Below are positions 1 through 13,466 of a stretch of 32,000 nucleotides of DNA, piece after piece. Both the position numbers and the translations under genes were made by a program. Under the pieces are notes generated by a model. It was not told where the DNA came from and did no database searches. It saw only the letters and a list, made by a program, of their open reading frames with translations. Source of the stretch: Candidatus Iainarchaeum sp. (GTDB lineage Archaea; Iainarchaeota; Iainarchaeia; Iainarchaeales; JAZDEL01); assembly GCA_043808785.1 (NCBI GenBank), contig JAZDEL010000001.1, positions 60,001-92,000 on the forward strand, in the 5' to 3' direction. Each line of letters starts with the position of its first letter. Within the stretch, counting starts at the first letter, position 1.

Positions 1-960
1 TTCCCCTAACACCGCCTTCTCGAATTCAATTTCAAATTTAACAAGGCTGCCCCCTTCCTTGAGCAGGTTCTCAACATCGGCTATCTTGTAGTGTGAGGCG
101 GTTTCCTTTACAACATCCTCCGCGTTCTTCGCGAGGAACGCATTCATTACCTTCTTCGCGGAAATCCTGCCCCCTTCGATTGCATCAAACCCTTCCGCTT
201 CCGAGGGTTTTTCGCGCAGCGCCCTTACAAGGTTTGTAACATTGCGCTCGTCTATCTCCGCCTCGAGCAGGGAGAGGATTTTGCTGTCCGTTACCGCTGC
301 GGCGCCAAACATTTCCCGCATGGTGGAATAATAATGCTTATCCAGTTCCGTCATAAGCGCCCCAATTTCAGAGTCCTGTGCGTGCTTCCTGATGATTTTC
401 CCATATTCACGCAGTTCCGCCTTTGCCTCGAGCCTGTCCGCAAGTTCGGAAGCGTTCTTAAGTTCCAGCAGGGAAAGGTAAAAGTCCTTTTTGAACTGCC
501 CTGCAACCATAAGCATGGGCATTATTTCATCCTTGGGTTTTTTGAAGTGGATTCCGAGGAAAATTGTTTTTATGTTCTTCAGGATATAGCGCCTTGTTGT
601 AATCGAAAGGAATGCTTCCGCATCCTTCGGCGCGACCCTGTTCAGCTTTTCGAAATAGCGCTCGAAATTGCGCGCGAATGCGATGTCAAGGAGTTTCACT
701 TTGTCGTCCTTGGCGTATGCCGAGGCGTTCACAAGGTCGGCCCTGTAATCGGTTTTCTCGAGCATGCTCATGAGTTCCTTTTCATTCTTCGCTGAAATCA
801 TGCCGTCATAATCCTTCGAAGTGAAAAGCCTTGCGCGCATCGCCTTTATGCGCGTGTTCGCATAACCGTAAGTGAGCGCGCGCATTGCAACGCTCTCTTT
901 GAGGGGATTTGGCATAGGGGCGGAACCGTTTGCCGCCCTCGGTGAAATGCTCATTTTCAT
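1..960 (-). CDS. atpC: A1AO (A/V-type) ATP synthase subunit C, first 320 codons; the 3' end lies beyond the window start
   Basis: Not in the ORF track because there is no stop in the window. My translation from ATG 960-958 reads MKMSISPRAANGSAPMPNPLKESVAMRALTYGYANTRIKAMRARLFTSKDYDGMISAKNEKELMSMLEKTDYRADLV... and stays open to base 1. YGYANTRIKAMRARLF is the typical subunit C/d N-terminus. ATGA start/stop overlap with atpE, and the position fits the H-I-K-E-C order. Confidence 0.85.
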   Translation of the reverse strand, partial: MKMSISPRAANGSAPMPNPLKESVAMRALTYGYANTRIKAMRARLFTSKDYDGMISAKNEKELMSMLEKTDYRADLVNASAYAKDDKVKLLDIAFARNFERYFEKLNRVAPKDAEAFLSITTRRYILKNIKTIFLGIHFKKPKDEIMPMLMVAGQFKKDFYLSLLELKNASELADRLEAKAELREYGKIIRKHAQDSEIGALMTELDKHYYSTMREMFGAAAVTDSKILSLLEAEIDERNVTNLVRALREKPSEAEGFDAIEGGRISAKKVMNAFLAKNAEDVVKETASHYKIADVENLLKEGGSLVKFEIEFEKAVLGE

Positions 961-1523
961 TTCTTCCCCCCGAACAATGCCTCGTGTATTGCCGCATAAA
1001 GCGCGGGTTTCTTTTCCTCCATAAGGGATTCAAAGGATGCGTCAACAGCAACCTTCCCATCTTCACTGACAACCCTTATTCCCCCGCGCATTTCAGCGGA
1101 GGAAACGTTTTTGGCGAACTTTTTGGCAAGGGAAAGGTCGTCCTTGTTCACAAAGGCTTTGCAGTTCTTGCCCAATTGCTTCTCCGCTTCGGTGTAGTTC
1201 GACCTGAGGAAATCCGCGTAACCAGCGCTCCCTTTGAACTCATCGAGCGCGGAACTGACACGCTCAAGGTTTTTCTCAATTGCCTTTGCCTTCGCTTCCG
1301 CAACAATCCTGTCCGCCTCCAGCTGCGCCGAGCTGAGTGCATGCATTCCCGCTTCCCTGAGGTAGTGCTCCGCCTCCTCCTTGGCTTTCTTCATTAAAGC
1401 GGAGCCCTCCTTCCTTGCTTCCTCGAGGGCCTGGCTGCGCCTGAGCGCAGCCGAGCCGCGTATCGCATCCTCCTCCTTCTTCGTGCCCGCCTCTATCTCG
1501 GACACCAGCTTTTCCAGGGACAT
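957..1523 (-). CDS. atpE: A1AO ATP synthase subunit E (peripheral stalk)
   Basis: 188 aa with a long N-terminal coiled coil (EEARKEGSALMKKAKEEAEHYLREA...) and a globular C-terminus. Lies between the proteolipid gene and subunit C. Confidence 0.85.
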   Translation of the reverse strand: MSLEKLVSEIEAGTKKEEDAIRGSAALRRSQALEEARKEGSALMKKAKEEAEHYLREAGMHALSSAQLEADRIVAEAKAKAIEKNLERVSSALDEFKGSAGYADFLRSNYTEAEKQLGKNCKAFVNKDDLSLAKKFAKNVSSAEMRGGIRVVSEDGKVAVDASFESLMEEKKPALYAAIHEALFGGKK

Positions 1524-1775: not shown

Positions 1776-3677
1776 TCACTCCACCTCCTTGTTGATCTTA
1801 AAGGGCTTATACTCCGTGCCCCCGCCGTGGAAGAACTTCGAGCTGAATTCCACAACAGTAAGCCTTCCGCCCTGTATTATGGACTCAAACATCGCTAAAA
1901 ATGCATTAAACAGATGACCTAATATAAATATCGGAAGCAGGACCAGGGCAAACAGGCCCTTTTCAGGGGAAGGGAAGGCAACCTCGTTCAGGATTACCGC
2001 TATGACCACGCCGGCAAGCCCCACAGCCATTATCCTTGAGAATGAAAGTATGTTGCCTGCAACGCTCGGCAACTCTATAAGTGCAATAGGCCCCTCTGTT
2101 GCCACTACTATGAGGATTGAAACCGCTGTTGCAATTCCGAAAGCCATGAAGTCCGCGTTTGTGAACATCGCATTAACCGTGAGCGAGCCGAAAACCACCG
2201 TGCATGCCCAGGCAAGCTTCGCTATGGCATGCTTGTTGTGCCTTTCCATGTAGGCGTTTATTGCCCCGAAAATGAAACCGAGCGTAATCACTGCCGCCCC
2301 CACAATTAACGTGAGCGCAAGCAACTGCTCTATGTTGATAAGCCTCTCCATGCCGTGGTAGAGGTGCACATTCATTCCGAACTTCCCAAGCAGTTCGTGG
2401 TGCGAAAAGCCGAAGTATTCGTCGAAGATTACGCCGAAAATCATCGTGGGAAGCGCCGCAAGGAACCAGAGCGTTGCAACCGACCTGAGCATTCCTTTTG
2501 GCGCCGAGATGCGTATAAACACATAGGCAAGGATAAGTGAAATTATCCCGTACCCGAAATCCCCGACCATCATCCCGTAAATGTAGGGCAGCAAAAGCGT
2601 GAACGCAAAACTGGGGTCAAGTTCCCTTGGGGACGGGAGCGCGGAAAACCTTGTGATAAATTCAAACGGCTTTATCAGCCCCGGGTTCTTGAGCAAAACG
2701 GGAATTTCCTCGTGCCCTTTCGAAAGTTCATTGCTCCCTTCAGCCTCAATGTGCGTTGTGCCCATTTTTTTCGCGTATTCGGCAAAGCCCGCATACTCTT
2801 CCTCCGGCATGTAAAATTCAATTACAGTGAATTCCCTGCTCCCCGCGAATTTCATCGCGGCTTCCGCCCTCTCCTTCTCTGTTTCGAGGGTTTTTTTCAT
2901 TTCAGCAAGGGAAGCCGAATATTTCGCCGCAAGGGAGGAAAGTCCATGTTCAAGCGAGGACTTTTTCGATTCAGCCCCTTTCAATTCCGCCTTCAGCGCC
3001 GCAAGCCTTTTCGCAACATTCACGTGCGGCATCTGCGCGGGTTCCGCAATTTTCCCAATCTCCTGCGTGAACTCCCCGAGCCTGCGTTTATCGACAGCAA
3101 CTATGGCAAAAACCTTCTGCTTATCCACATGCTTCGTGAAAAGCGCGCAGCCGAGCCTGTCGGAAAGCGCGTTAAGCGCATCCATTTTCGCGGCTTTGAG
3201 CGTGAACGCGTGGAATTCGGCGTTCGCGCTCTCCAGCCCTGAAAAATCTATGCCGAATTTGGAGAAAGGCTTCAGGTATTCGGTTTCGTCGCTTATTTTC
3301 TTTATTTCCGCGCAGGACATGTCGTGCGAATTCTTTATATCGGCAACTCTGGAATCGATGGCCTCGATTTTTTTCATGTTGAGTTTTTCCGCGCCGTTTT
3401 TTCCCGCACGCAAATTGCCGTTTGCGTTTTTTCCGTTCCTCTTTCCGTTTCCCGCCCCCGCCCTGCACTTGCCCAGAACGGAAATCATCCCCTCAGCCTT
3501 AATCAGCGATGCAACGGTTTCGGAATAGCCTTCGAGCGCCTGCCCGCTGTAAAGCCCCGCAATGTGCACATCTTTCAGATGCCCCCTGCCGTACTCGTGA
3601 AGCAGCCTGACATTCCCCGGCAGTTCCTTTTTGAGGCCGAAAACCCTGACCTTGCACATGCGTTCCGGGAAAATCAT
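1776..3677 (-). CDS. atpI: A1AO ATP synthase subunit I (a)
   Basis: 633 aa with an N-terminal cytoplasmic coiled-coil half and a C-terminal multi-TM half that carries the conserved Arg context LSFSRIMAVGLAG. Its stop codon abuts the atpK start. Confidence 0.9.
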   Translation of the reverse strand: MIFPERMCKVRVFGLKKELPGNVRLLHEYGRGHLKDVHIAGLYSGQALEGYSETVASLIKAEGMISVLGKCRAGAGNGKRNGKNANGNLRAGKNGAEKLNMKKIEAIDSRVADIKNSHDMSCAEIKKISDETEYLKPFSKFGIDFSGLESANAEFHAFTLKAAKMDALNALSDRLGCALFTKHVDKQKVFAIVAVDKRRLGEFTQEIGKIAEPAQMPHVNVAKRLAALKAELKGAESKKSSLEHGLSSLAAKYSASLAEMKKTLETEKERAEAAMKFAGSREFTVIEFYMPEEEYAGFAEYAKKMGTTHIEAEGSNELSKGHEEIPVLLKNPGLIKPFEFITRFSALPSPRELDPSFAFTLLLPYIYGMMVGDFGYGIISLILAYVFIRISAPKGMLRSVATLWFLAALPTMIFGVIFDEYFGFSHHELLGKFGMNVHLYHGMERLINIEQLLALTLIVGAAVITLGFIFGAINAYMERHNKHAIAKLAWACTVVFGSLTVNAMFTNADFMAFGIATAVSILIVVATEGPIALIELPSVAGNILSFSRIMAVGLAGVVIAVILNEVAFPSPEKGLFALVLLPIFILGHLFNAFLAMFESIIQGGRLTVVEFSSKFFHGGGTEYKPFKINKEVE

Positions 3678-4411: not shown

Positions 4412-5346
4412 TTCCCGTTCCTCTTCCCGAACATCTTTTCCCGTGCCAGCCCCTCTTCGAGCGCGCTGACAAGCGAGATTGTGAAACTCGGGCTAAGTAT
4501 CCCCTTTTCAATCATCCAGCGCTCGATTGGAATTTGAAGTCCGACCTGTTCATCATAATATGTCCTGAAACCATGCCTTTCTCTTCCCCTGTCGAACTCC
4601 TTCTTGTCAAGGTAAGCCTGCCGCTCCATTAGCAAGATTTTCTTGTCTCCTTCCTGCATTTCCTTGCTCATAAATTGCATCCGCTCCATGGGTTTTTTGC
4701 CGCGGGTTTTGATTATTTTATAATACTCATTTCCTCCGGCATTCTTCAGTTCCCTGTACTCCCTGGCTGCTCCCTTGCCCGACATAGCAAGGTGACCTCT
4801 ACTTCTTGCTACTTTGTACTCCTCCTCTACTGAATCTATCTTTTGCATAAGCGCCCCGTGGCGCTTCTTAATCTCCTCGTTAAGGCGCTTCATCTGCCCA
4901 AGCACTTGCTCCTTGTCGATGCCTTCCTTGAACAATGCCGATCTTACAGTGACCCAATAGTGCCCTGTATCCATGTGTAAAAGGAAGTTGTTCACTACTC
5001 TTCCGGTTTTACTGTCGTAGCCGTAATCACCCAGCCCCCAGCCTTTCCGCGCGGTTTCCAGGGAGCCCTTACCTGTTTCGAACAGACGCTCATATTCAGC
5101 GCCGCCGGTTTCGGTCTTCACGAAGTCTATCTGCGCCACGTTCTCCTTCGCAAGCCTCTGCATCTCGTGTATTTTTTCCATGTGGCCCCTGACAAGCGCC
5201 CCTATCTCGCGCTCGTGTGGCCTGATTTTCATAAGCGGGAAAAGCCTGCCTTCAAACACGGGCTTTGGCGTTCCCTGCCTGAACTGCCTTTTCACGCGCA
5301 CAGCCTTTACTTTCTTAATTGCGGCCGAACCCGCGCCCCTTAGCAT
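4408..5346 (-). CDS. hypothetical protein (312 aa, soluble, charged), no motif recognised
   Basis: Long ORF with coding-like composition. Translationally coupled to the downstream membrane ORF. Confidence 0.6.
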   Translation of the reverse strand: MLRGAGSAAIKKVKAVRVKRQFRQGTPKPVFEGRLFPLMKIRPHEREIGALVRGHMEKIHEMQRLAKENVAQIDFVKTETGGAEYERLFETGKGSLETARKGWGLGDYGYDSKTGRVVNNFLLHMDTGHYWVTVRSALFKEGIDKEQVLGQMKRLNEEIKKRHGALMQKIDSVEEEYKVARSRGHLAMSGKGAAREYRELKNAGGNEYYKIIKTRGKKPMERMQFMSKEMQEGDKKILLMERQAYLDKKEFDRGRERHGFRTYYDEQVGLQIPIERWMIEKGILSPSFTISLVSALEEGLAREKMFGKRNGK

Positions 5347-8614: not shown

Positions 8615-9958
8615 TTGGTGGGCAATGAAAACGGAACATCGGCAATCGAGAAGGCAAAAAACGGCGGCGTGAAGTTCGTGCAATTGCAGTTCACGGACCT
8701 TTTCGGCGCGATTAAGGAGGTGACAATTCCCGCGCGCCACCTTCAGGAAAGCATAGAGAAGGGCACATGGTTCGACGGCAGTTCCATAGAGGGCTTCGCG
8801 CGCATTTGTGAGTCGGACATGTACCTGAAGCCGGATGAAAGCACGTATGCCGTGATGCCCTTCGCGGGGCCGAACGGAAAAACCGCGCGCCTCATCTGCG
8901 ACGTTTACTCCCCGAACGGAAAGCCATTTCCCTGCGACCCGCGCAACATACTGAAAAATACTCTCGCAAAGGCGCGGGAAATGGGCTTCACATATAACAC
9001 AGGGCCCGAGCTTGAATTTTTCCTTTTCAGGAGGGAAAACGGCATCCCCACGGGCGTGATGCACGATTCCGCGGGTTACTTCGACCTTTCGACCTTAGAC
9101 CTTGCCTCGGGCATAAGAAGGGAGATTGCCGTGGCGCTCGAGGCGTTCGGCATAGATGTGGAGATGGCGCACCACGAGGTTGCGGAAGGGCAGCACGAGA
9201 TAGGCTTCAGGTATGCTGACGCCCTAACAACAGCGGACCGCGCCCTCACGCTGAAATTCGTTGTGAAATCAATTGCAAACTCACACGGCCTGCACGCAAG
9301 CTTCATGCCCAAGCCGGTTTTCGGGATAAACGGCAGCGGAATGCACGTGCACCAGAGCCTTTTTGCGGGGGGCGGCACTAACGCCTTTTACTCCGCGGAT
9401 TCAAAATACAAGCTTTCCGAAACAGCGCTCTCTTTCATTGCGGGGCAATTGAAGCACGCGCGCGAGTTTTCCGCCGTAACCGCGCCCACGGTGAACAGCT
9501 ACAAGCGCCTTGTTCCCGGTTATGAGGCTCCCGTTTACATTTGCTGGGGGCAGGTGAACCGCTCCGCACTTATCCGCGTTCCCTCATGCCCCAAAGGCAG
9601 GGAGCAGTCTGTGCGCGCGGAACTGCGCTGCCCAGACCCCTCATGCAACCCTTACCTTGCTTTTGCCGCGATGCTTGCCGCGGGGCTTGACGGGATTGAA
9701 AAGTGCCTTGCCCCTCCCGGGCCCGTGGAGGAGGATGTTTACGGGTTCAGCAGCGAGAAGCTGGAAAGCAGCGGCATAGCAACATTGCCCGGCTCCCTGA
9801 ATGATGCCGTGCGCGAGTTCGGAAAAAGCGGGCTCATGCGCGAAGTTTTCGGTGAAAGTGCGTTTTCAAAATACGTGCGCGCAAAGGAAGCGGAGTGGGG
9901 CGAATACAGGATTCACGTCACGGACTGGGAAAAGGAAAAGTATTTCGGGAAAACCTAG
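8615..9958 (+). CDS. glnA: glutamine synthetase, type I
   Basis: 447 aa with the beta-grasp N-domain (VKFVQLQFTDLFG) and catalytic motifs (MAHHEVAEGQHEI, NGSGMHVHQSLF, NSYKRLVPGYEAP, NRSALIRVP). TTG 8615 or GTG 8618 follows AGGAGG. Confidence 0.95.
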   Translation: MVGNENGTSAIEKAKNGGVKFVQLQFTDLFGAIKEVTIPARHLQESIEKGTWFDGSSIEGFARICESDMYLKPDESTYAVMPFAGPNGKTARLICDVYSPNGKPFPCDPRNILKNTLAKAREMGFTYNTGPELEFFLFRRENGIPTGVMHDSAGYFDLSTLDLASGIRREIAVALEAFGIDVEMAHHEVAEGQHEIGFRYADALTTADRALTLKFVVKSIANSHGLHASFMPKPVFGINGSGMHVHQSLFAGGGTNAFYSADSKYKLSETALSFIAGQLKHAREFSAVTAPTVNSYKRLVPGYEAPVYICWGQVNRSALIRVPSCPKGREQSVRAELRCPDPSCNPYLAFAAMLAAGLDGIEKCLAPPGPVEEDVYGFSSEKLESSGIATLPGSLNDAVREFGKSGLMREVFGESAFSKYVRAKEAEWGEYRIHVTDWEKEKYFGKT

Positions 9959-9989: not shown

Positions 9990-10253
9990 ATGCCGCACGC
10001 CACGAACGAAAAAATAAGCGCAATCCTCTCGCGCAACGCGCGCGTGGAGCGTGACAAGGCATGGGAGGTAAGCAAAACAAGGCGCGCGATTATTGCCGTT
10101 GCGACCTACCTCGTGATTCTGTATTTCCTCCTCCTCATAAACGCCCCGAACCCCTACACAAACGCGCTTGTTCCCGCCGCTGCCTACCTGCTCTCGACCC
10201 TCTCCCTGCCCTTCATAAAAAAATGGTGGGAAAAGGAATTTTACAAGGGTTAA
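9990..10253 (+). CDS. small membrane protein, unknown function
   Basis: Two hydrophobic helices. ATG 9990 is in frame with the ORF-track TTG at 9972. Confidence 0.5.
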   Translation: MPHATNEKISAILSRNARVERDKAWEVSKTRRAIIAVATYLVILYFLLLINAPNPYTNALVPAAAYLLSTLSLPFIKKWWEKEFYKG

Positions 10254-10294
10254 GCAAGGATTTTACAAAGGTTAAACGCGCTGTTGTGGTTTGC

Positions 10295-10651
10295 ATGGAA
10301 AAGAAAAATCTCCGTTTCTGGTTCCGCCTTGCGATGATTCCGCTGTTTCTCATCCTGTTCTGGCAGCTCGGCCTGCCTTTCGAGGCGCTTGTTGTGCTCG
10401 GCGCGATAATGCTTGTGCTTGTGCTGATGAGGGGAAAAATGTGGCGCGCTGCGGACCGTGCTGTCGAGCGCTGGCTGCCGTTCACAAAAAAGTGGCCCGA
10501 CTGGGGGAGAAAGGTTGTTGTGGTGCTTGTGTTCATTGTCGCGCTCGCGCTGCTGAAGCAGATAGTTTATTTCCTGCTCTCGCTTGCGGGAATCGACGTG
10601 CAGCGAATAATGATTGATGCGGTGAAGCAGGGAAGCGTTCAGGGCGCGTGA
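10295..10651 (+). CDS. membrane protein, unknown function (about 4 TM)
   Basis: MEKKNLRFWFRLAMIPLFLILFW... The ORF-track start at 10061 overlaps the previous gene, so ATG 10295 is preferred. Confidence 0.55.
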   Translation: MEKKNLRFWFRLAMIPLFLILFWQLGLPFEALVVLGAIMLVLVLMRGKMWRAADRAVERWLPFTKKWPDWGRKVVVVLVFIVALALLKQIVYFLLSLAGIDVQRIMIDAVKQGSVQGA

Positions 10652-10672: not shown

Positions 10673-10951
10673 TCACTTCTGCCTCTGCTTCGGCAGCATC
10701 ACTTCAGTGTTCGCGTCGTTAACGAAATTCGCCATCTTTTCCGAAACAGGGCGGAAGGGCTGTGCAGCCATTTCACGCCCTTCCGCGCCGTTGTCGCCGT
10801 GCTGCCTTACTGTTCCCGGGATGTAAACGGCCTTCCCCTTGAGCATATCGAGCCCCGAAACCTGGAAAAGGCTTCTGCACTTCTGCGAGCAGAAAACATT
10901 GTCACCCTTAACTTCATAAATTATCCCGCAGCGCGGGCACATCTTTTTCAT
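10673..10951 (-). CDS. zinc-ribbon protein with CxxC...FCSxxC (zf-FCS/TRASH-like) motif
   Basis: The N-terminus MKKMCPRCGIIYEVKGDNVFCSQKCRSLF carries the motif. The rest of the protein is low complexity. Confidence 0.6.
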   Translation of the reverse strand: MKKMCPRCGIIYEVKGDNVFCSQKCRSLFQVSGLDMLKGKAVYIPGTVRQHGDNGAEGREMAAQPFRPVSEKMANFVNDANTEVMLPKQRQK

Positions 10952-11136
10952 ATTTACACCCGTTATCCGAATGCCGATTGCCGCCTGAATTATGTTCGGA
11001 AATTATTAAATAACCCCCGCTCCAGTGAGGAAGCCGGGCACGCCGGGCTGGATGAACCGTATCCCCCGCGCGATTGTGACCATGCCCCTCGTTGTGGAAA
11101 GCACCATTGCCCCCCGAAAAGGAAAAGTCGGGGCCT

Positions 11137-11316
11137 TCAGTCGCCGCTTATGTACATGTCCCTGCACCTTGGGCTGCAGAACCTGTGGGCATATAGGCTG
11201 CCGGACTGTTCGGCCAGCTCATTGCCGCAGTTCATGCATTTCGGCGCGCCCCTGCTGTATGCAAAGGTGCCGTTGTTCGCAGCCCTGTCGGAATACCGCT
11301 TGTTAACATAATTCAT
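11137..11316 (-). CDS. zinc-ribbon protein with CxxC...FCSxxC (zf-FCS/TRASH-like) motif, 59 aa
   Basis: MNYVNKRYSDRAANNGTFAYSRGAPKCMNCGNELAEQSGSLYAHRFCSPRCRDMYISGD. GGAGG lies 7 nt before ATG 11316, and the ORF-track start at 11367 is likely too early. Confidence 0.6.
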   Translation of the reverse strand: MNYVNKRYSDRAANNGTFAYSRGAPKCMNCGNELAEQSGSLYAHRFCSPRCRDMYISGD

Positions 11317-11339
11317 TGTCCCGCCTCCATGAACGGATT

Positions 11340-11426
11340 TTAATAGTCGTCGTCCGCGTCCTCGCAATCGCCGCCGAACGAATCGTCATCGCCGTCGTCG
11401 CCAAACTGCCGGATTATTTTTGCCAT
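11340..11426 (-). CDS. acidic micro-ORF 1 (28 aa): MAKIIRQFGDDGDDDSFGGDCEDADDDY
   Basis: My own translation; the ORF is below the track's size cutoff. It ends 23 nt before the zinc-ribbon gene start. Shares MAK..F..DDDSF..D-rich features with micro-ORF 2. Only a weak G-run precedes the ATG. Confidence 0.4.
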   Translation of the reverse strand: MAKIIRQFGDDGDDDSFGGDCEDADDDY

Positions 11427-11550
11427 TTAACGCCCCCCGCCGGGATTTATGTGCCAAAAGCCGGGCGGCAAGCCCTGCCTGTGCACAACAATCTATGCCC
11501 CATATCGGATATTTAAAAATATTGTTGGGCCGGGCGTATGCGGTAAGATA

Positions 11551-11582
11551 TAAAAAAAGGCGGGAAGGCACATAAGTGCCTT
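11551..11582 (-). terminator. hairpin AAGGCAC-ttat-GTGCCTT followed by a T7 run (minus strand)
   Basis: 7-bp stem at 11565-11582 and an A7 run at 11552-11558 on the plus strand, 46 nt downstream of the micro-ORF 2 stop. Confidence 0.45.
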
Positions 11583-11627
11583 CGGAGCATAAGCAACGCA
11601 CGGCTCCGGAAAGCCTTGCACGGCTTG

Positions 11628-11729
11628 TCAGATTTCCTCGTCTGAGCTCTCGTCGCCGTCGTCGTCGAAAGAATCGTCGTCGTCGAACTCCTCTTCTTCC
11701 TCTTCCAGCACCTTCTTTTCCTTAGCCAT
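11628..11729 (-). CDS. acidic micro-ORF 2 (33 aa): MAKEKKVLEEEEEEFDDDDSFDDDGDESSDEEI
   Basis: My own translation; the ORF is below the track's size cutoff. AGGAGG lies 8 nt upstream of ATG 11729 (revcomp of ttcctcctt) and it has its own hairpin/oligo-T terminator. Confidence 0.5.
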   Translation of the reverse strand: MAKEKKVLEEEEEEFDDDDSFDDDGDESSDEEI

Positions 11730-11947
11730 GGGTTTTTCCTCCTTGCAGGTGTATTTACAATCTTTCTGTTGCCGTATTGGGCTGCGGGATTTTCGGGGAA
11801 TTCCCGAACCAGCTTACCATATTCCCCCCGCTGTATTGTATTTAAATATATTGTTCGCGGCGCCCGGCCCGCACTTTCCCCCCCGGAAAACTCCGCAAGC
11901 CGTGCCGGAATGAACCGCGGAAACGCACGCGAATTTATTTTTTCCGC

Positions 11948-12053
11948 AAAAAAAATGCGGCGTTCAAAAAAATCCCTGAGTTTCCGAAAAAAAAATCCCG
12001 CGGTTCAAAAAAATCCGCGGTTTCGGGAAAAAATAATCTATTTTCAAAAAAAA
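11948..12053. repeat. six phased A-tracts (A6-A9) forming a degenerate ~20-bp tandem repeat, A(n)-TCCGCGG-TTTC-like units
   Basis: A-runs start at 11948, 11966, 11987, 12007, 12028 and 12046, giving spacings of 18, 21, 20, 21 and 18. Read directly from the sequence. Confidence 0.85.
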
Positions 12054-12116
12054 TTCCTGAAATTTTCCGCAACAGAAATGAATATATATCCGCACGCCCA
12101 TTATATTGCGAACACC

Positions 12117-13466
12117 ATGGCGAGCAATAACCAGAACGGCAACGGAAAGGAGCCGAAAAACCAGAACGGCAACGGAAAGCCGCCGAAAAAATTTCTTTTT
12201 GTCTCCATCGACGGCCTCATCGGCGACATCGCCTGGCAGATCGTGAAGGAGGGGCACAAGGTAAAATATTTCATCGAGTGCAAGGACGAGAAGGAAGTGG
12301 CGAGCGGCTTCGTGCCGATGGTTGATGACTGGGAAAAGGAAGTCGGCTGGGCGGACGTGATCGTTTTCGACGATGTGCTCGGCCAGGGAACCAAGGCCAA
12401 GAAACTTCGCGACGAGGGCAAGCATGTTGTCGGCGGCACTCCCTACACCGACAAGCTCGAGGACGACAGGGGTTTCGGGCAGGAGGAACTGAAGAAGGCG
12501 GGCGTGCCGATTCTTCCTTACAAAGAGTTCACATCTTTCGACGAGGCGATAAAATTCGTGCAGGACAATCCCGGAAGGTATGTGATCAAGCCGAGCGGGG
12601 AGGCGCAGAACATAAAGAGCATGCTTTTTGTCGGGGAGGACGACGAGGGAAAGGACGTCTTACAGGTGCTGAGCGACTACAACAAGGCGTGGTCGAAAAA
12701 AATCCCGGTTTTCCAATTGCAGAAGTGTGTTATGGGTGTCGAGGTTGCTGTCGGCGCCTTTTTCAACGGCAAGGAATTCATCTACCCCATAAACGTGAAC
12801 TTCGAGCACAAGAAGCTTTTCCCGGGAAACCTCGGCCCTTCGACGGGAGAAATGGGCACGCTCATGTTCTGGAGCGGCCCGAACCGCATATTCAACCAGA
12901 CGCTTAAAAAAATGGAGCCGAAACTCGCCGAGGAAAAATATGTCGGATACATAGACATAAACTGCATAGTGAACTACAACGGAATTTATCCGCTTGAATT
13001 CACCTCGCGCTTCGGCTACCCCACAATCAGCATACAGCAGGAAGGGATGATAACGCCCATAGGCGAATTCCTCTACGAGCTTGCAAAGGGCGAGGCGCCC
13101 AAATGGCGCGTAAAGAGCGGGTTCCAGATGGGCGTGAGGATTGTGGTTCCGCCATTCCCGTTTGATGACCCCGAAACCTTCAATGTGAAATCGAAGGACA
13201 CGCTGATATTCTTCAAGAAGCCCACCGATGGCATACATGTGGAGGACGTGAAGCTCGTGAACGGGGAATGGCTGATCACGGGGACGGCGGGTGTCGTTCT
13301 TATCGTCTGCGGCACAGGGCAGACCGTGAAGCAGGCACAGGCACAGGCATACGGCAGGATAAGCAACGTCATGATACCGAACATGTATTACCGCACGGAC
13401 ATCGGCGACCGCTGGTTCGAGGACAGCGACAGGCTGCATAATTGGGGCTATCTGAGGGAACTGTGA
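12117..13466 (+). CDS. PurD-like ATP-grasp ligase (phosphoribosylamine-glycine ligase family, divergent)
   Basis: Matches the PurD pattern at FEHKKLFPGNLGPSTGEMGT (cf. HKR..D.GPNTGGMG), LEFTSRFGYPT (cf. EFNCRFGDPE), the GVVLIVCGTGQTVKQAQAQAY tail and YYRTDIGDR. The N-domain lacks GGREHA. Start taken at ATG 12117, because the upstream in-frame part of the ORF-track call runs through the A-tract array. Confidence 0.8.
   Translation: MASNNQNGNGKEPKNQNGNGKPPKKFLFVSIDGLIGDIAWQIVKEGHKVKYFIECKDEKEVASGFVPMVDDWEKEVGWADVIVFDDVLGQGTKAKKLRDEGKHVVGGTPYTDKLEDDRGFGQEELKKAGVPILPYKEFTSFDEAIKFVQDNPGRYVIKPSGEAQNIKSMLFVGEDDEGKDVLQVLSDYNKAWSKKIPVFQLQKCVMGVEVAVGAFFNGKEFIYPINVNFEHKKLFPGNLGPSTGEMGTLMFWSGPNRIFNQTLKKMEPKLAEEKYVGYIDINCIVNYNGIYPLEFTSRFGYPTISIQQEGMITPIGEFLYELAKGEAPKWRVKSGFQMGVRIVVPPFPFDDPETFNVKSKDTLIFFKKPTDGIHVEDVKLVNGEWLITGTAGVVLIVCGTGQTVKQAQAQAYGRISNVMIPNMYYRTDIGDRWFEDSDRLHNWGYLREL

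Follow-up and report, generated by a model that had tools for sequence, protein, structure and literature searches.

Two unannotated acidic micro-ORFs with signs of purifying selection accompany FCS-type zinc-finger genes in a DPANN archaeon

Do two very short and extremely acidic open reading frames (ORFs) in an archaeal chromosome encode peptides, and if so, on what would these peptides act? Both lie on the minus strand of a stretch of 32,000 nucleotides (nt) of Candidatus Iainarchaeum sp. (GCA_043808785.1, JAZDEL010000001.1, positions 60,001-92,000 of the forward strand), which we call the window and in whose numbering coordinates are given. The original prediction described the two ORFs as translated paralogues that are paired with two zinc-ribbon genes, and proposed that the product of a divergent ATP-grasp gene might use them as substrates or carriers. 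The first two parts of this picture held up when relatives of the locus were compared, while the third did not.

Coding evidence and distribution of the micro-ORFs

11340-11426, minus strand: uORF1, 28 amino acids, MAKIIRQFGDDGDDDSFGGDCEDADDDY, net charge -9
11628-11729, minus strand: uORF2, 33 amino acids, MAKEKKVLEEEEEEFDDDDSFDDDGDESSDEEI, net charge -16
11137-11316, minus strand: ZnR1, 59 amino acids, basic (isoelectric point 8.4-9.1), C27xxC30...FC47SPRC51 (CxxC-x16-FCSxxC), with GGAGG at 11324-11328
10673-10951, minus strand: ZnR2, 92 amino acids, basic (isoelectric point 9.4-9.5), N-terminal C5PRC8...FC21SQKC25 (CPRCG-x12-FCSQKC)

Both micro-ORFs were found in the sequence where they had been predicted and with the predicted translations. 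A G6 run that resembles a Shine-Dalgarno (SD) sequence (11433-11438) stands 6 nt upstream of the uORF1 ATG, and the AGGAGG that had been reported for uORF2 (11738-11743) stands 8 nt upstream of its ATG. The run of Asp and Glu begins at residue 9-10 in both, and each ORF as a whole is short enough for the ribosomal exit tunnel. The peptides also have a conserved aromatic/Ser core, F...D-D-S-F-[GD][GD]-D, to which uORF1 adds a conserved C-terminal DDY; the C-terminal residues of the peptides are DDY, EEI or EDL. Chance ORFs were rejected as an explanation, as these two exceed all others of the 442 window ORFs of at least 20 amino acids in acidity (D+E fractions of 0.58 and 0.39, with the next ORF at 0.20) and are conserved in relatives.

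Relatives were found via the zinc-finger proteins: a search of 5.8 billion proteins returned just two relatives for ZnR1 and three for ZnR2. Besides the queries themselves, all matches were orthologues from L081 and L082, both of which are contigs built from public sequencing-run data. On L081 (1.6 kb), the order is a uORF1 orthologue (MRKENWQFNGDYDGDDSFGGDCEDDSGDDY), ZnR1, a full MarC gene, and ZnR2; this contig starts within the uORF2 terminator hairpin and hence does not reach uORF2. L082 (18 kb) carries uORF2 (MAKEKKKLEEEEEEFDDDDSFDDDGDEDSDEDL), uORF1 (MGKVNRHFSGDYEEDDSFGGDYDDDFGDDY), ZnR1, MarC, and ZnR2, and is syntenic with the window across the stretch from the ATPase genes to the glutamine synthetase gene. 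uORF1 is present in all three sequences and uORF2 in both that reach it; the uORF2 of L082, which has the same length and is 88% identical, is among the genes that the assembly pipeline predicted. Divergence among the three sequences is considerable, with ZnR2 proteins 63-88% identical and synonymous divergence (dS) ranging from 0.4 to >1.

Across this divergence, every sequence retains intact reading frames. Every indel is a multiple of three, and the uORF1 orthologues of L081 and L082, at 30 amino acids each, owe their change in length to 3-nt indels only. Over the 28 codons of uORF1, the variable sites at codon positions 1, 2, and 3 number 5, 8, and 18. The proportion of synonymous differences (pS) is 0.46-0.84 versus 0.13-0.19 for nonsynonymous ones (pN), the ratio of nonsynonymous to synonymous divergence (dN/dS) is 0.12-0.21, and the excess of synonymous change is significant (Fisher p = 1e-6 to 7e-3). 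The differences in uORF2 are distributed 3/2/7 by codon position (dN/dS 0.21; Fisher p = 0.017), and the zinc-finger genes, with which the micro-ORFs are on a level in this respect, have dN/dS values of 0.17-0.55. Between the window and either relative, the body of the 5' untranslated region (5'UTR) is 33-43% identical, the uORF1 coding sequence 71-75%, and the promoter block 97-100%; between L081 and L082, the 5'UTR is 75% and the uORF1 coding sequence 81% identical. Net charge is exactly conserved, at -9 in the three uORF1 sequences and at -16 in the two of uORF2. Because all indels are in frame, third codon positions vary most, and dN/dS is low against decayed flanks, we consider it very likely that both micro-ORFs are real protein-coding genes under purifying selection. 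The selection expected of translated ORFs was thus seen, at dN/dS 0.12-0.21 and with no stops or frameshifts in L081 or L082.

The peptides of uORF1 and uORF2 align via their invariant D-D-S-F core, with a similarity above that of composition-preserving shuffles (p = 0.001-0.03), and a 36-nt direct repeat between the two ORFs is 78% identical. Given this similarity, the repeat, and a private promoter box common to both (see below), the two are plausibly paralogous, as had been suggested, rather than alike by chance.

Searches beyond these sequences returned little. No comparable acidic ORF (15-80 amino acids, at least 40% D+E) was found in 80 fetched loci that contain a homologue of the neighbouring ATP-grasp gene; the sole listing of that scan was a 17-amino-acid chance ORF with 41% D+E, which lies within the ATP-grasp coding sequence of one locus, L048. 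A separate acidic-window scan of L081-L086 matched the two L082 micro-ORFs only, with the uORF1 homologue of L081 just below its threshold, and the motif [DE][DE]SF[DEG][DEG] gave only chance matches elsewhere in the window and fetched loci (0.94 Mb combined). The cassette is absent from all MarC-homologue loci of other DPANN genomes (L083-L087, 61-68% identity). No exact record of the uORF2 protein was found in public assemblies. A peptide-pattern scan of Joint Genome Institute (JGI) metagenomes gave 600 pattern matches, of which 0 were confirmed, and a degenerate DNA pattern for [DE][DE]FDDD[DE]SFDD[DE] had 0 matches in JGI metagenomes and 0 in IMG/VR. A phmmer search with uORF2 had 0 matches in 1.84 billion representative proteins, which excludes only similar segments in longer proteins; this null has no positive control, as the collection does not contain the 33-amino-acid orthologue of L082. 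The micro-ORF family thus far comprises three contigs of one narrow Diapherotrites/Iainarchaeota lineage, with no known family matched in these searches. A defence or viral element was also considered and rejected: PADLOC gave no matches, PHROG gave only weak, generic zinc-finger matches, and the context is one of housekeeping genes (A-type ATPase, glutamine synthetase, Lrp, Ogg).

On these comparisons, the micro-ORFs are a new, previously unannotated small-protein family with a narrow distribution and a link to zinc-finger micro-proteins: two genes of 28-33 codons with clear purifying selection, private promoters, and a conserved zinc-finger association. Annotation misses proteins of fewer than 50 residues; hardly any of them have been characterised in archaea, and none, to our knowledge, in DPANN archaea. 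Bacterial and eukaryotic proteomes avoid Asp/Glu runs in the first 30 codons because these destabilise the translating ribosome. Maintenance of such runs despite this avoidance would point to a specific function of the peptide or to difficult translation being exploited on purpose. Practical relevance is modest, as the family belongs to one narrow uncultured lineage and its function is a proposal.

Transcription signals and companion zinc-finger genes

11493-11528, minus strand: uORF1/ZnR1 promoter block, CCAACAATATTTTTAAATATCCGATATGGGGCATAG, with the shared box at 11510-11526; 97-100% identical in the three sequences
11815-11858, minus strand: uORF2 promoter block, GCGAACAATATATTTAAATACAATACAGCGGGGGGAATATGGTA, with AACAAT resembling a B recognition element (BRE), TATA box TTTAAATA, and the shared box at 11839-11855
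11730-11814, minus strand: uORF2 5' leader, with AGGAGG at 11738-11743 and a 25-nt invariant block
11552-11583, minus strand: uORF2 terminator, hairpin GAAGGCAC-nnnn-GTGCCTTC at 11564-11583, then T7 at 11552-11558

Similar upstream boxes had been noted before both micro-ORFs. They are indeed there, although the first had been placed about 7 nt from its correct position at 11510-11526. On the minus strand, both read AACAATAT[A/T]TTTAAATA, 17 nt in length. This box stands ahead of every micro-ORF (two in the window, two in L082, one in L081), with 100% conservation; it occurs nowhere else in the window with up to 3 mismatches, and is absent from the other 85 loci and the remainder of L082. Its TTTAAATA part fits the archaeal TATA consensus, and an A-rich hexamer precedes the TATA at the BRE position. 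The invariant block extends 17-24 nt beyond the TATA box, after which conservation collapses, as expected around a transcription start. By established promoter consensus, the box is predicted to be an archaeal BRE/TATA-type promoter element. The uORF2 promoter block is 100% identical to that of L082, and the sequence further upstream is unrelated.

The hairpin and T7 terminator that had been described for uORF2 are also present. The stem and T-run are kept in all three sequences while the loop varies (TTAT, GTGC, AAAC), and identity is 88-91% over all pairs. Having its own promoter and terminator, uORF2 is probably monocistronic. The stop codon of uORF1 ends at 11340 and the ATG of ZnR1 is at 11316, which leaves, as predicted, 23 nt between the micro-ORF and this GGAGG-led gene. 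As this spacer contains neither a T-run nor a TATA box, the uORF1 transcript would run into ZnR1, and the two probably form one transcription unit. Their order is the same in all three sequences, with a spacer of 23-27 nt and a conserved GGAGG.

The uORF2 leader is ~73% identical to that of L082 by manual count from the alignment, and its SD sequence is conserved. No covariation was found in the consensus folding of the leader, and the folding z-score of the whole transcript is only -2.1. The 25-nt leader block (11751-11775, minus strand) is invariant between the window and L082, and codons 8-27 of uORF2 (11649-11707, minus strand) differ from L082 at 1 of 59 nt, with dS elsewhere at 0.4-0.9. 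This suggests a possible nucleotide-level constraint on top of coding in uORF2 and its leader. The same two stretches would speak for the view that the ORFs are untranslated and conserved as an element of RNA or DNA, for instance a small RNA or a regulatory tract rich in purines. That view is hardly credible, however, given the third-position bias, the in-frame indels, a dN/dS of ~0.1-0.2, and SD sites conserved at the right distance; moreover, the alternative frames are not consistently open. Separately, a 19-nt leader segment (11762-11780) is 84% identical, in RNA sense, to the unit of a repeat in the 5' end of the ATP-grasp gene (12131-12149 and 12161-12179); on DNA this is an inverted repeat, possibly by chance.

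Both zinc-finger genes carry the CxxC...FCSxxC arrangement that had been reported for them, and the CxxC...(F)CSxxC pattern is invariant in all ZnR1 and ZnR2 orthologues. ZnR1, which NCBI labels as a hypothetical protein of a Candidatus Diapherotrites archaeon and places on a 214-kb contig, has orthologues that are 83-86% identical (dN/dS 0.17-0.25). The orthologues of ZnR2 are 88% and 63% identical, and its C-terminal part contains the conserved motif PFRPVxEKMANFxNDANTEVM. Net charges are +2 to +4 for ZnR1 and +6 to +7 for ZnR2, of opposite sign to the peptides and conserved. The cysteines follow an FCS-type pattern, but membership of zf-FCS, zf-FLZ, TRASH, or L24e is putative, since all scores are sub-threshold. 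ZnR1 has such matches to DUF7576, zf-FLZ, YacG, and L24e, and ZnR2 to zf-FLZ, DUF2116, and YacG, with HscB_4_cys also among the treble-clef C4 matches. The best scores against their cutoffs are 17.3 versus 27 bits for DUF7576, 16 versus 23.4 for zf-FLZ, and 18.4 versus 79 for YacG, with L24e at E = 0.4 (PDB). Neither protein reached the TRASH or YHS models, and the literature search found no paper on DUF7576. ZnR1 and the ZnR2 of L082 have weak matches to FYDLN_acid (PF09538) and YacG (E = 0.012-0.06, below curated cutoffs), zinc-ribbon families that are linked with acidic regions or with inhibition of a partner. FYDLN_acid proteins consist of a C4 ribbon joined to a long acidic tail; there, the acidic part belongs to the same protein, whereas in the present locus it is a separate gene product.

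ZnR1 and ZnR2 are comparable to HVO_0758 and HVO_2753 of Haloferax volcanii, which are likewise archaeal, shorter than 100 amino acids, and have one C4 zinc site with C(P)xCG as its first half-site (PMC10716476, PMC6562870). The second half-site differs, being FCSxxC (FCS/L24e/TRASH-type) here and C(P)xCG in the Haloferax proteins, and there is no significant sequence match. In the literature searched, no partnership with an acidic micro-ORF is described for proteins of the HVO_0758/HVO_2753 type.

11006-11113, minus strand: MarC-family remnant, comprising the last 35 codons of the gene; 74% identity to the C-terminal end of MarC from L082

In L081 and L082, ZnR1 and ZnR2 are separated by a complete MarC gene. 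As the window has only this remnant where both relatives have an intact gene, the window genome lost MarC and kept both zinc-finger genes.

Candidate roles of the peptides

Of the synteny that had been expected, the part that concerns the zinc fingers was borne out, since both FCS-type genes accompany the micro-ORFs in every relative found. As a tentative and still doubtful first choice, we propose that the peptides are disordered polyanions that act in trans on the co-encoded basic treble-clef zinc-finger proteins. Peptides of 28-33 residues would be unable to fold alone, and might instead serve as disordered acidic/aromatic ligands; their shortness and high charge, the conservation of the aromatic/Ser core, and the exact constancy of net charge all point to such a mode of action. 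uORF1 and ZnR1 would be expressed from one transcript, in a stretch that in the relatives continues into MarC and ZnR2, and the basic ZnR1 and ZnR2 would be the likeliest candidate targets. A peptide may occupy the basic, probably nucleic-acid-binding surface of the zinc finger, and might thereby keep the protein soluble or inactive, or outcompete nucleic acid by mimicry. The pairing is favoured by the numbers, with two peptides and two zinc fingers, by the constant order of uORF1 and ZnR1, by the opposite and conserved charges, and by the retention of ZnR2 even where MarC has been lost.

There is precedent for such behaviour. The small acidic disordered proteins DSS1/Sem1 and CSNAP bind basic surfaces of their partners and can block DNA binding by a partner or bridge complexes (PMC11329725, PMC8442969), and DSS1 masks DNA-binding surfaces of BRCA2 (PMC11329725). 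They resemble the uORF peptides in being very small, highly acidic, and disordered, with interspersed aromatic residues; unlike these, they are eukaryotic, have 57-89 amino acids, and share no sequence homology with them. The putative partners in the present case, zinc-finger proteins of 59-92 amino acids, are unlike those of DSS1 and CSNAP as well.

Several observations weigh against a pairing with the zinc fingers. It is deduced from gene order and charge, so ZnR1 and ZnR2 are candidate partners only, and their nucleic-acid-binding role is in turn read from sub-threshold treble-clef similarity. ZnR1 is only mildly basic, uORF2 lies outside any zinc-finger operon, and the AlphaFold models of ZnR1 and ZnR2 are too low-confidence for use, with a predicted local distance difference test (pLDDT) score of 48-49. 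Co-occurrence carries little statistical weight, since it was observed in three contigs of one narrow lineage.

The modest charge match with ZnR1 and the solitary position of uORF2, with its own promoter and terminator, are what could be expected if the peptides acted in trans on an unlinked partner by means of a short linear motif of acidic and aromatic residues, comparable to the tails of single-stranded DNA-binding protein (SSB) or the ribosomal stalk. The target would then be a replication, translation, or host-interaction protein, and the adjacency to zinc fingers merely historical. The D-D-S-F core, the flanking aromatics, and the C-terminal DDY do resemble a docking motif. Yet the order of uORF1 and ZnR1 and their short spacer are kept in all three sequences, and the motif occurs in a meaningful context in no other protein of the window or loci; we regard this explanation as somewhat unlikely. 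The short spacer is also what an explanation in cis would build on, in which uORF1 is a sensor that is hard to translate, and its translation sets the expression of ZnR1 (and of MarC and ZnR2) according to Mg2+ or a similar factor that stabilises the ribosome. This is the main rival of the proposal in trans, although an unlinked partner has the higher probability in our estimate. Acidic runs in the first 30 codons abort translation in bacteria and eukaryotes, and MgtL uses this to sense Mg2+ (10.1101/2021.02.02.429294; PMC9718836; PMC12673854). Like uORF1, MgtL is a short ORF with D/E-rich early codons upstream of another gene (10.1101/2021.02.02.429294), and uORF1 has the same configuration of an acidic cluster within the first ~30 codons and a gene downstream: it is acidic from residue 10, lies wholly inside the exit tunnel, and ends 23 nt before ZnR1. 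Genes for membrane or ion-transport proteins lie downstream or nearby (MarC; MscL in L082; CaCA exchangers). However, MgtL is bacterial and needs only an acidic/Pro cluster, whereas in the micro-ORFs the full peptide is under selection, past the acidic run, and the conserved non-acidic F8, S-F, G-G, and terminal Y would be of no use to a sensor that relies purely on destabilisation. The terminator after uORF2 leaves nothing obvious for that ORF to regulate, and intrinsic ribosome destabilisation has been demonstrated outside archaea only. A role in cis is unlikely on balance. 

The transporter genes, together with the Asp-rich, Gly-containing composition of the peptides, might instead suggest that these bind or buffer divalent cations (Ca2+, Mg2+, or a metal) in concert with TRASH-like, metal-handling zinc fingers and membrane proteins. 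The CxxC...CxxxC arrangement is as in TRASH/YHS-type metal-binding domains, a likeness taken from the literature, and MarC, MscL, TerC/DUF475, and two Na+/Ca2+ exchanger genes occur in the region. We judge this quite unlikely, however: neither an EF-hand nor any other defined Ca-binding motif fits, conservation does not extend to Cys21 of uORF1 (Tyr in L082), ZnR1 and ZnR2 reach no TRASH or YHS model, and the transporter genes are non-adjacent and common in any genome. Equally improbable in our view is a combined reading, in which polyanionic nucleic-acid mimics that titrate the zinc fingers would at the same time be programmed as hard-to-translate sensors of Mg2+ or polyamines. If it were true, the yield of micro-ORF and ZnR1 product would report the Mg2+ or polyamine state, and this would be the first regulatory use of intrinsic ribosome destabilisation in Archaea and a new class of regulatory micro-proteins.

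The enzyme that the original prediction linked to the peptides, and a second enzyme in the neighbourhood, are the following.

12105-13466, plus strand: PurD-like ATP-grasp gene, GARS_A and GARS_C domains; excluded as a partner
8615-9958: glutamine synthetase, ~700 nt beyond ZnR2

The description of the neighbour as a divergent PurD-like ATP-grasp gene was apt, in that GARS_A and GARS_C were matched. It scores 107.7 bits against the purD model TIGR00877, whose cutoff is 288, and GARS_N was not detected, so that it falls short of an assignment as PurD. It was not the only enzyme nearby, as had been claimed, given the glutamine synthetase. Homologues with 60-85% identity are present in 80 genomes, including DPANN archaea, Acidobacteriota, Gemmatimonadota, Gammaproteobacteria, Patescibacteria, and others, and the gene looks like a widely shared ATP-grasp gene that has probably spread horizontally.

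Under the proposal, the peptides would be substrates or carriers of this ligase, comparable to LysW/LysX, S6/RimK, or the graspetides. The ATP-grasp gene is within 0.4 kb of the peptides in the window and within 1.2 kb in L082, and the proximity of a zinc ribbon, an acidic stretch, and an ATP-grasp gene does recall the LysW/ArgW and LysX/ArgX systems. In LysW, however, the ribbon and the acidic tail are on one polypeptide with a conserved terminal Glu, and LysX/ArgX, unlike the neighbour, are RimK-type enzymes that are co-conserved with lysine or arginine biosynthesis genes. The neighbour is PurD-like, and resembles neither RimK/LysX nor MdnB/C. LysX, RimK, and tubulin-tyrosine ligase (TTL)-type ligases use a C-terminal Glu, whereas the peptides end in Y, I, or L, differing between paralogues, and they lack the Lys/Thr/Ser-rich core of graspetides. 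Up to 6 kb from the ATP-grasp gene, the 80 homologous loci contain neither FCS zinc fingers nor acidic micro-ORFs, so that the expected synteny failed here; upstream of the enzyme's nearest homologue (L001, 85% identity) there is instead a gene for a 386-amino-acid secreted-type protein, and in L082 a 273-amino-acid membrane-protein gene intervenes between uORF2 and the ATP-grasp gene. In a single locus of the 80, L069 from Omnitrophota, a member of this ATP-grasp family does have a LysW-like zinc ribbon 2.4 kb away, and that ribbon carries a long acidic tail. Taken together, the proposed link is very improbable.

The two specific models behind this proposal were rejected on their own terms. 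Against graspetide precursors, the acidic core of the peptides has one Ser and lacks Thr and Lys (the uORF2 tail adds two more Ser), and the ATP-grasp gene is PurD-like and not co-conserved with them. As for a LysW-like carrier, PF21344 does not match ZnR1 or ZnR2 at E <= 10, although the model does detect the LysW-like protein of L069; furthermore, the acidic peptides are separate genes without an EDWGE-type C-terminal Glu, and the neighbour is not of the RimK/LysX type. In L069, the LysW-like ribbon with its very long acidic tail is encoded at 9644-9940 (plus strand), downstream of the ATP-grasp gene. Another ORF with an acidic tail is found near 4533 (plus strand), ~1.5 kb upstream, with an LD-carboxypeptidase gene in between.

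Surroundings of the cassette

The window is an ordinary housekeeping stretch of a DPANN archaeal chromosome, with genes for A-type ATPase subunits, two Lrp/AsnC regulators, rubrerythrin, Ogg, glutamine synthetase, sugar enzymes, RNase HII, and ZPR1; the region also contains TerC/DUF475 and two Na+/Ca2+ exchanger (CaCA) genes. Scans of the window found no Rfam families or tRNAs.

The genes that surround the cassette are not the same in all relatives. L082 has two extra genes around the cassette that are missing from the window, namely that of the 273-amino-acid membrane protein (524-1345, minus strand) and MscL after ZnR2 (3133-3438, plus strand). In their stead, the window has an ORF for a 196-amino-acid membrane protein at 10061-10651. 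Within the 5' end of the ATP-grasp gene, a 30-nt tandem repeat (12129-12190, plus strand; 2.1 copies, 93% identical) codes for two copies of NQNGNGKxPK. This N-terminal extension is not common to most of the 80 loci, whose homologues align only from ~residue 27. Between genes and upstream of the ATP-grasp gene, a phased A-tract repeat spans 11941-12038, with a period of ~41 nt, 2.4 copies, and A7-8 runs every ~20 nt; a weaker T/A-rich repeat is found at the same place in L082.

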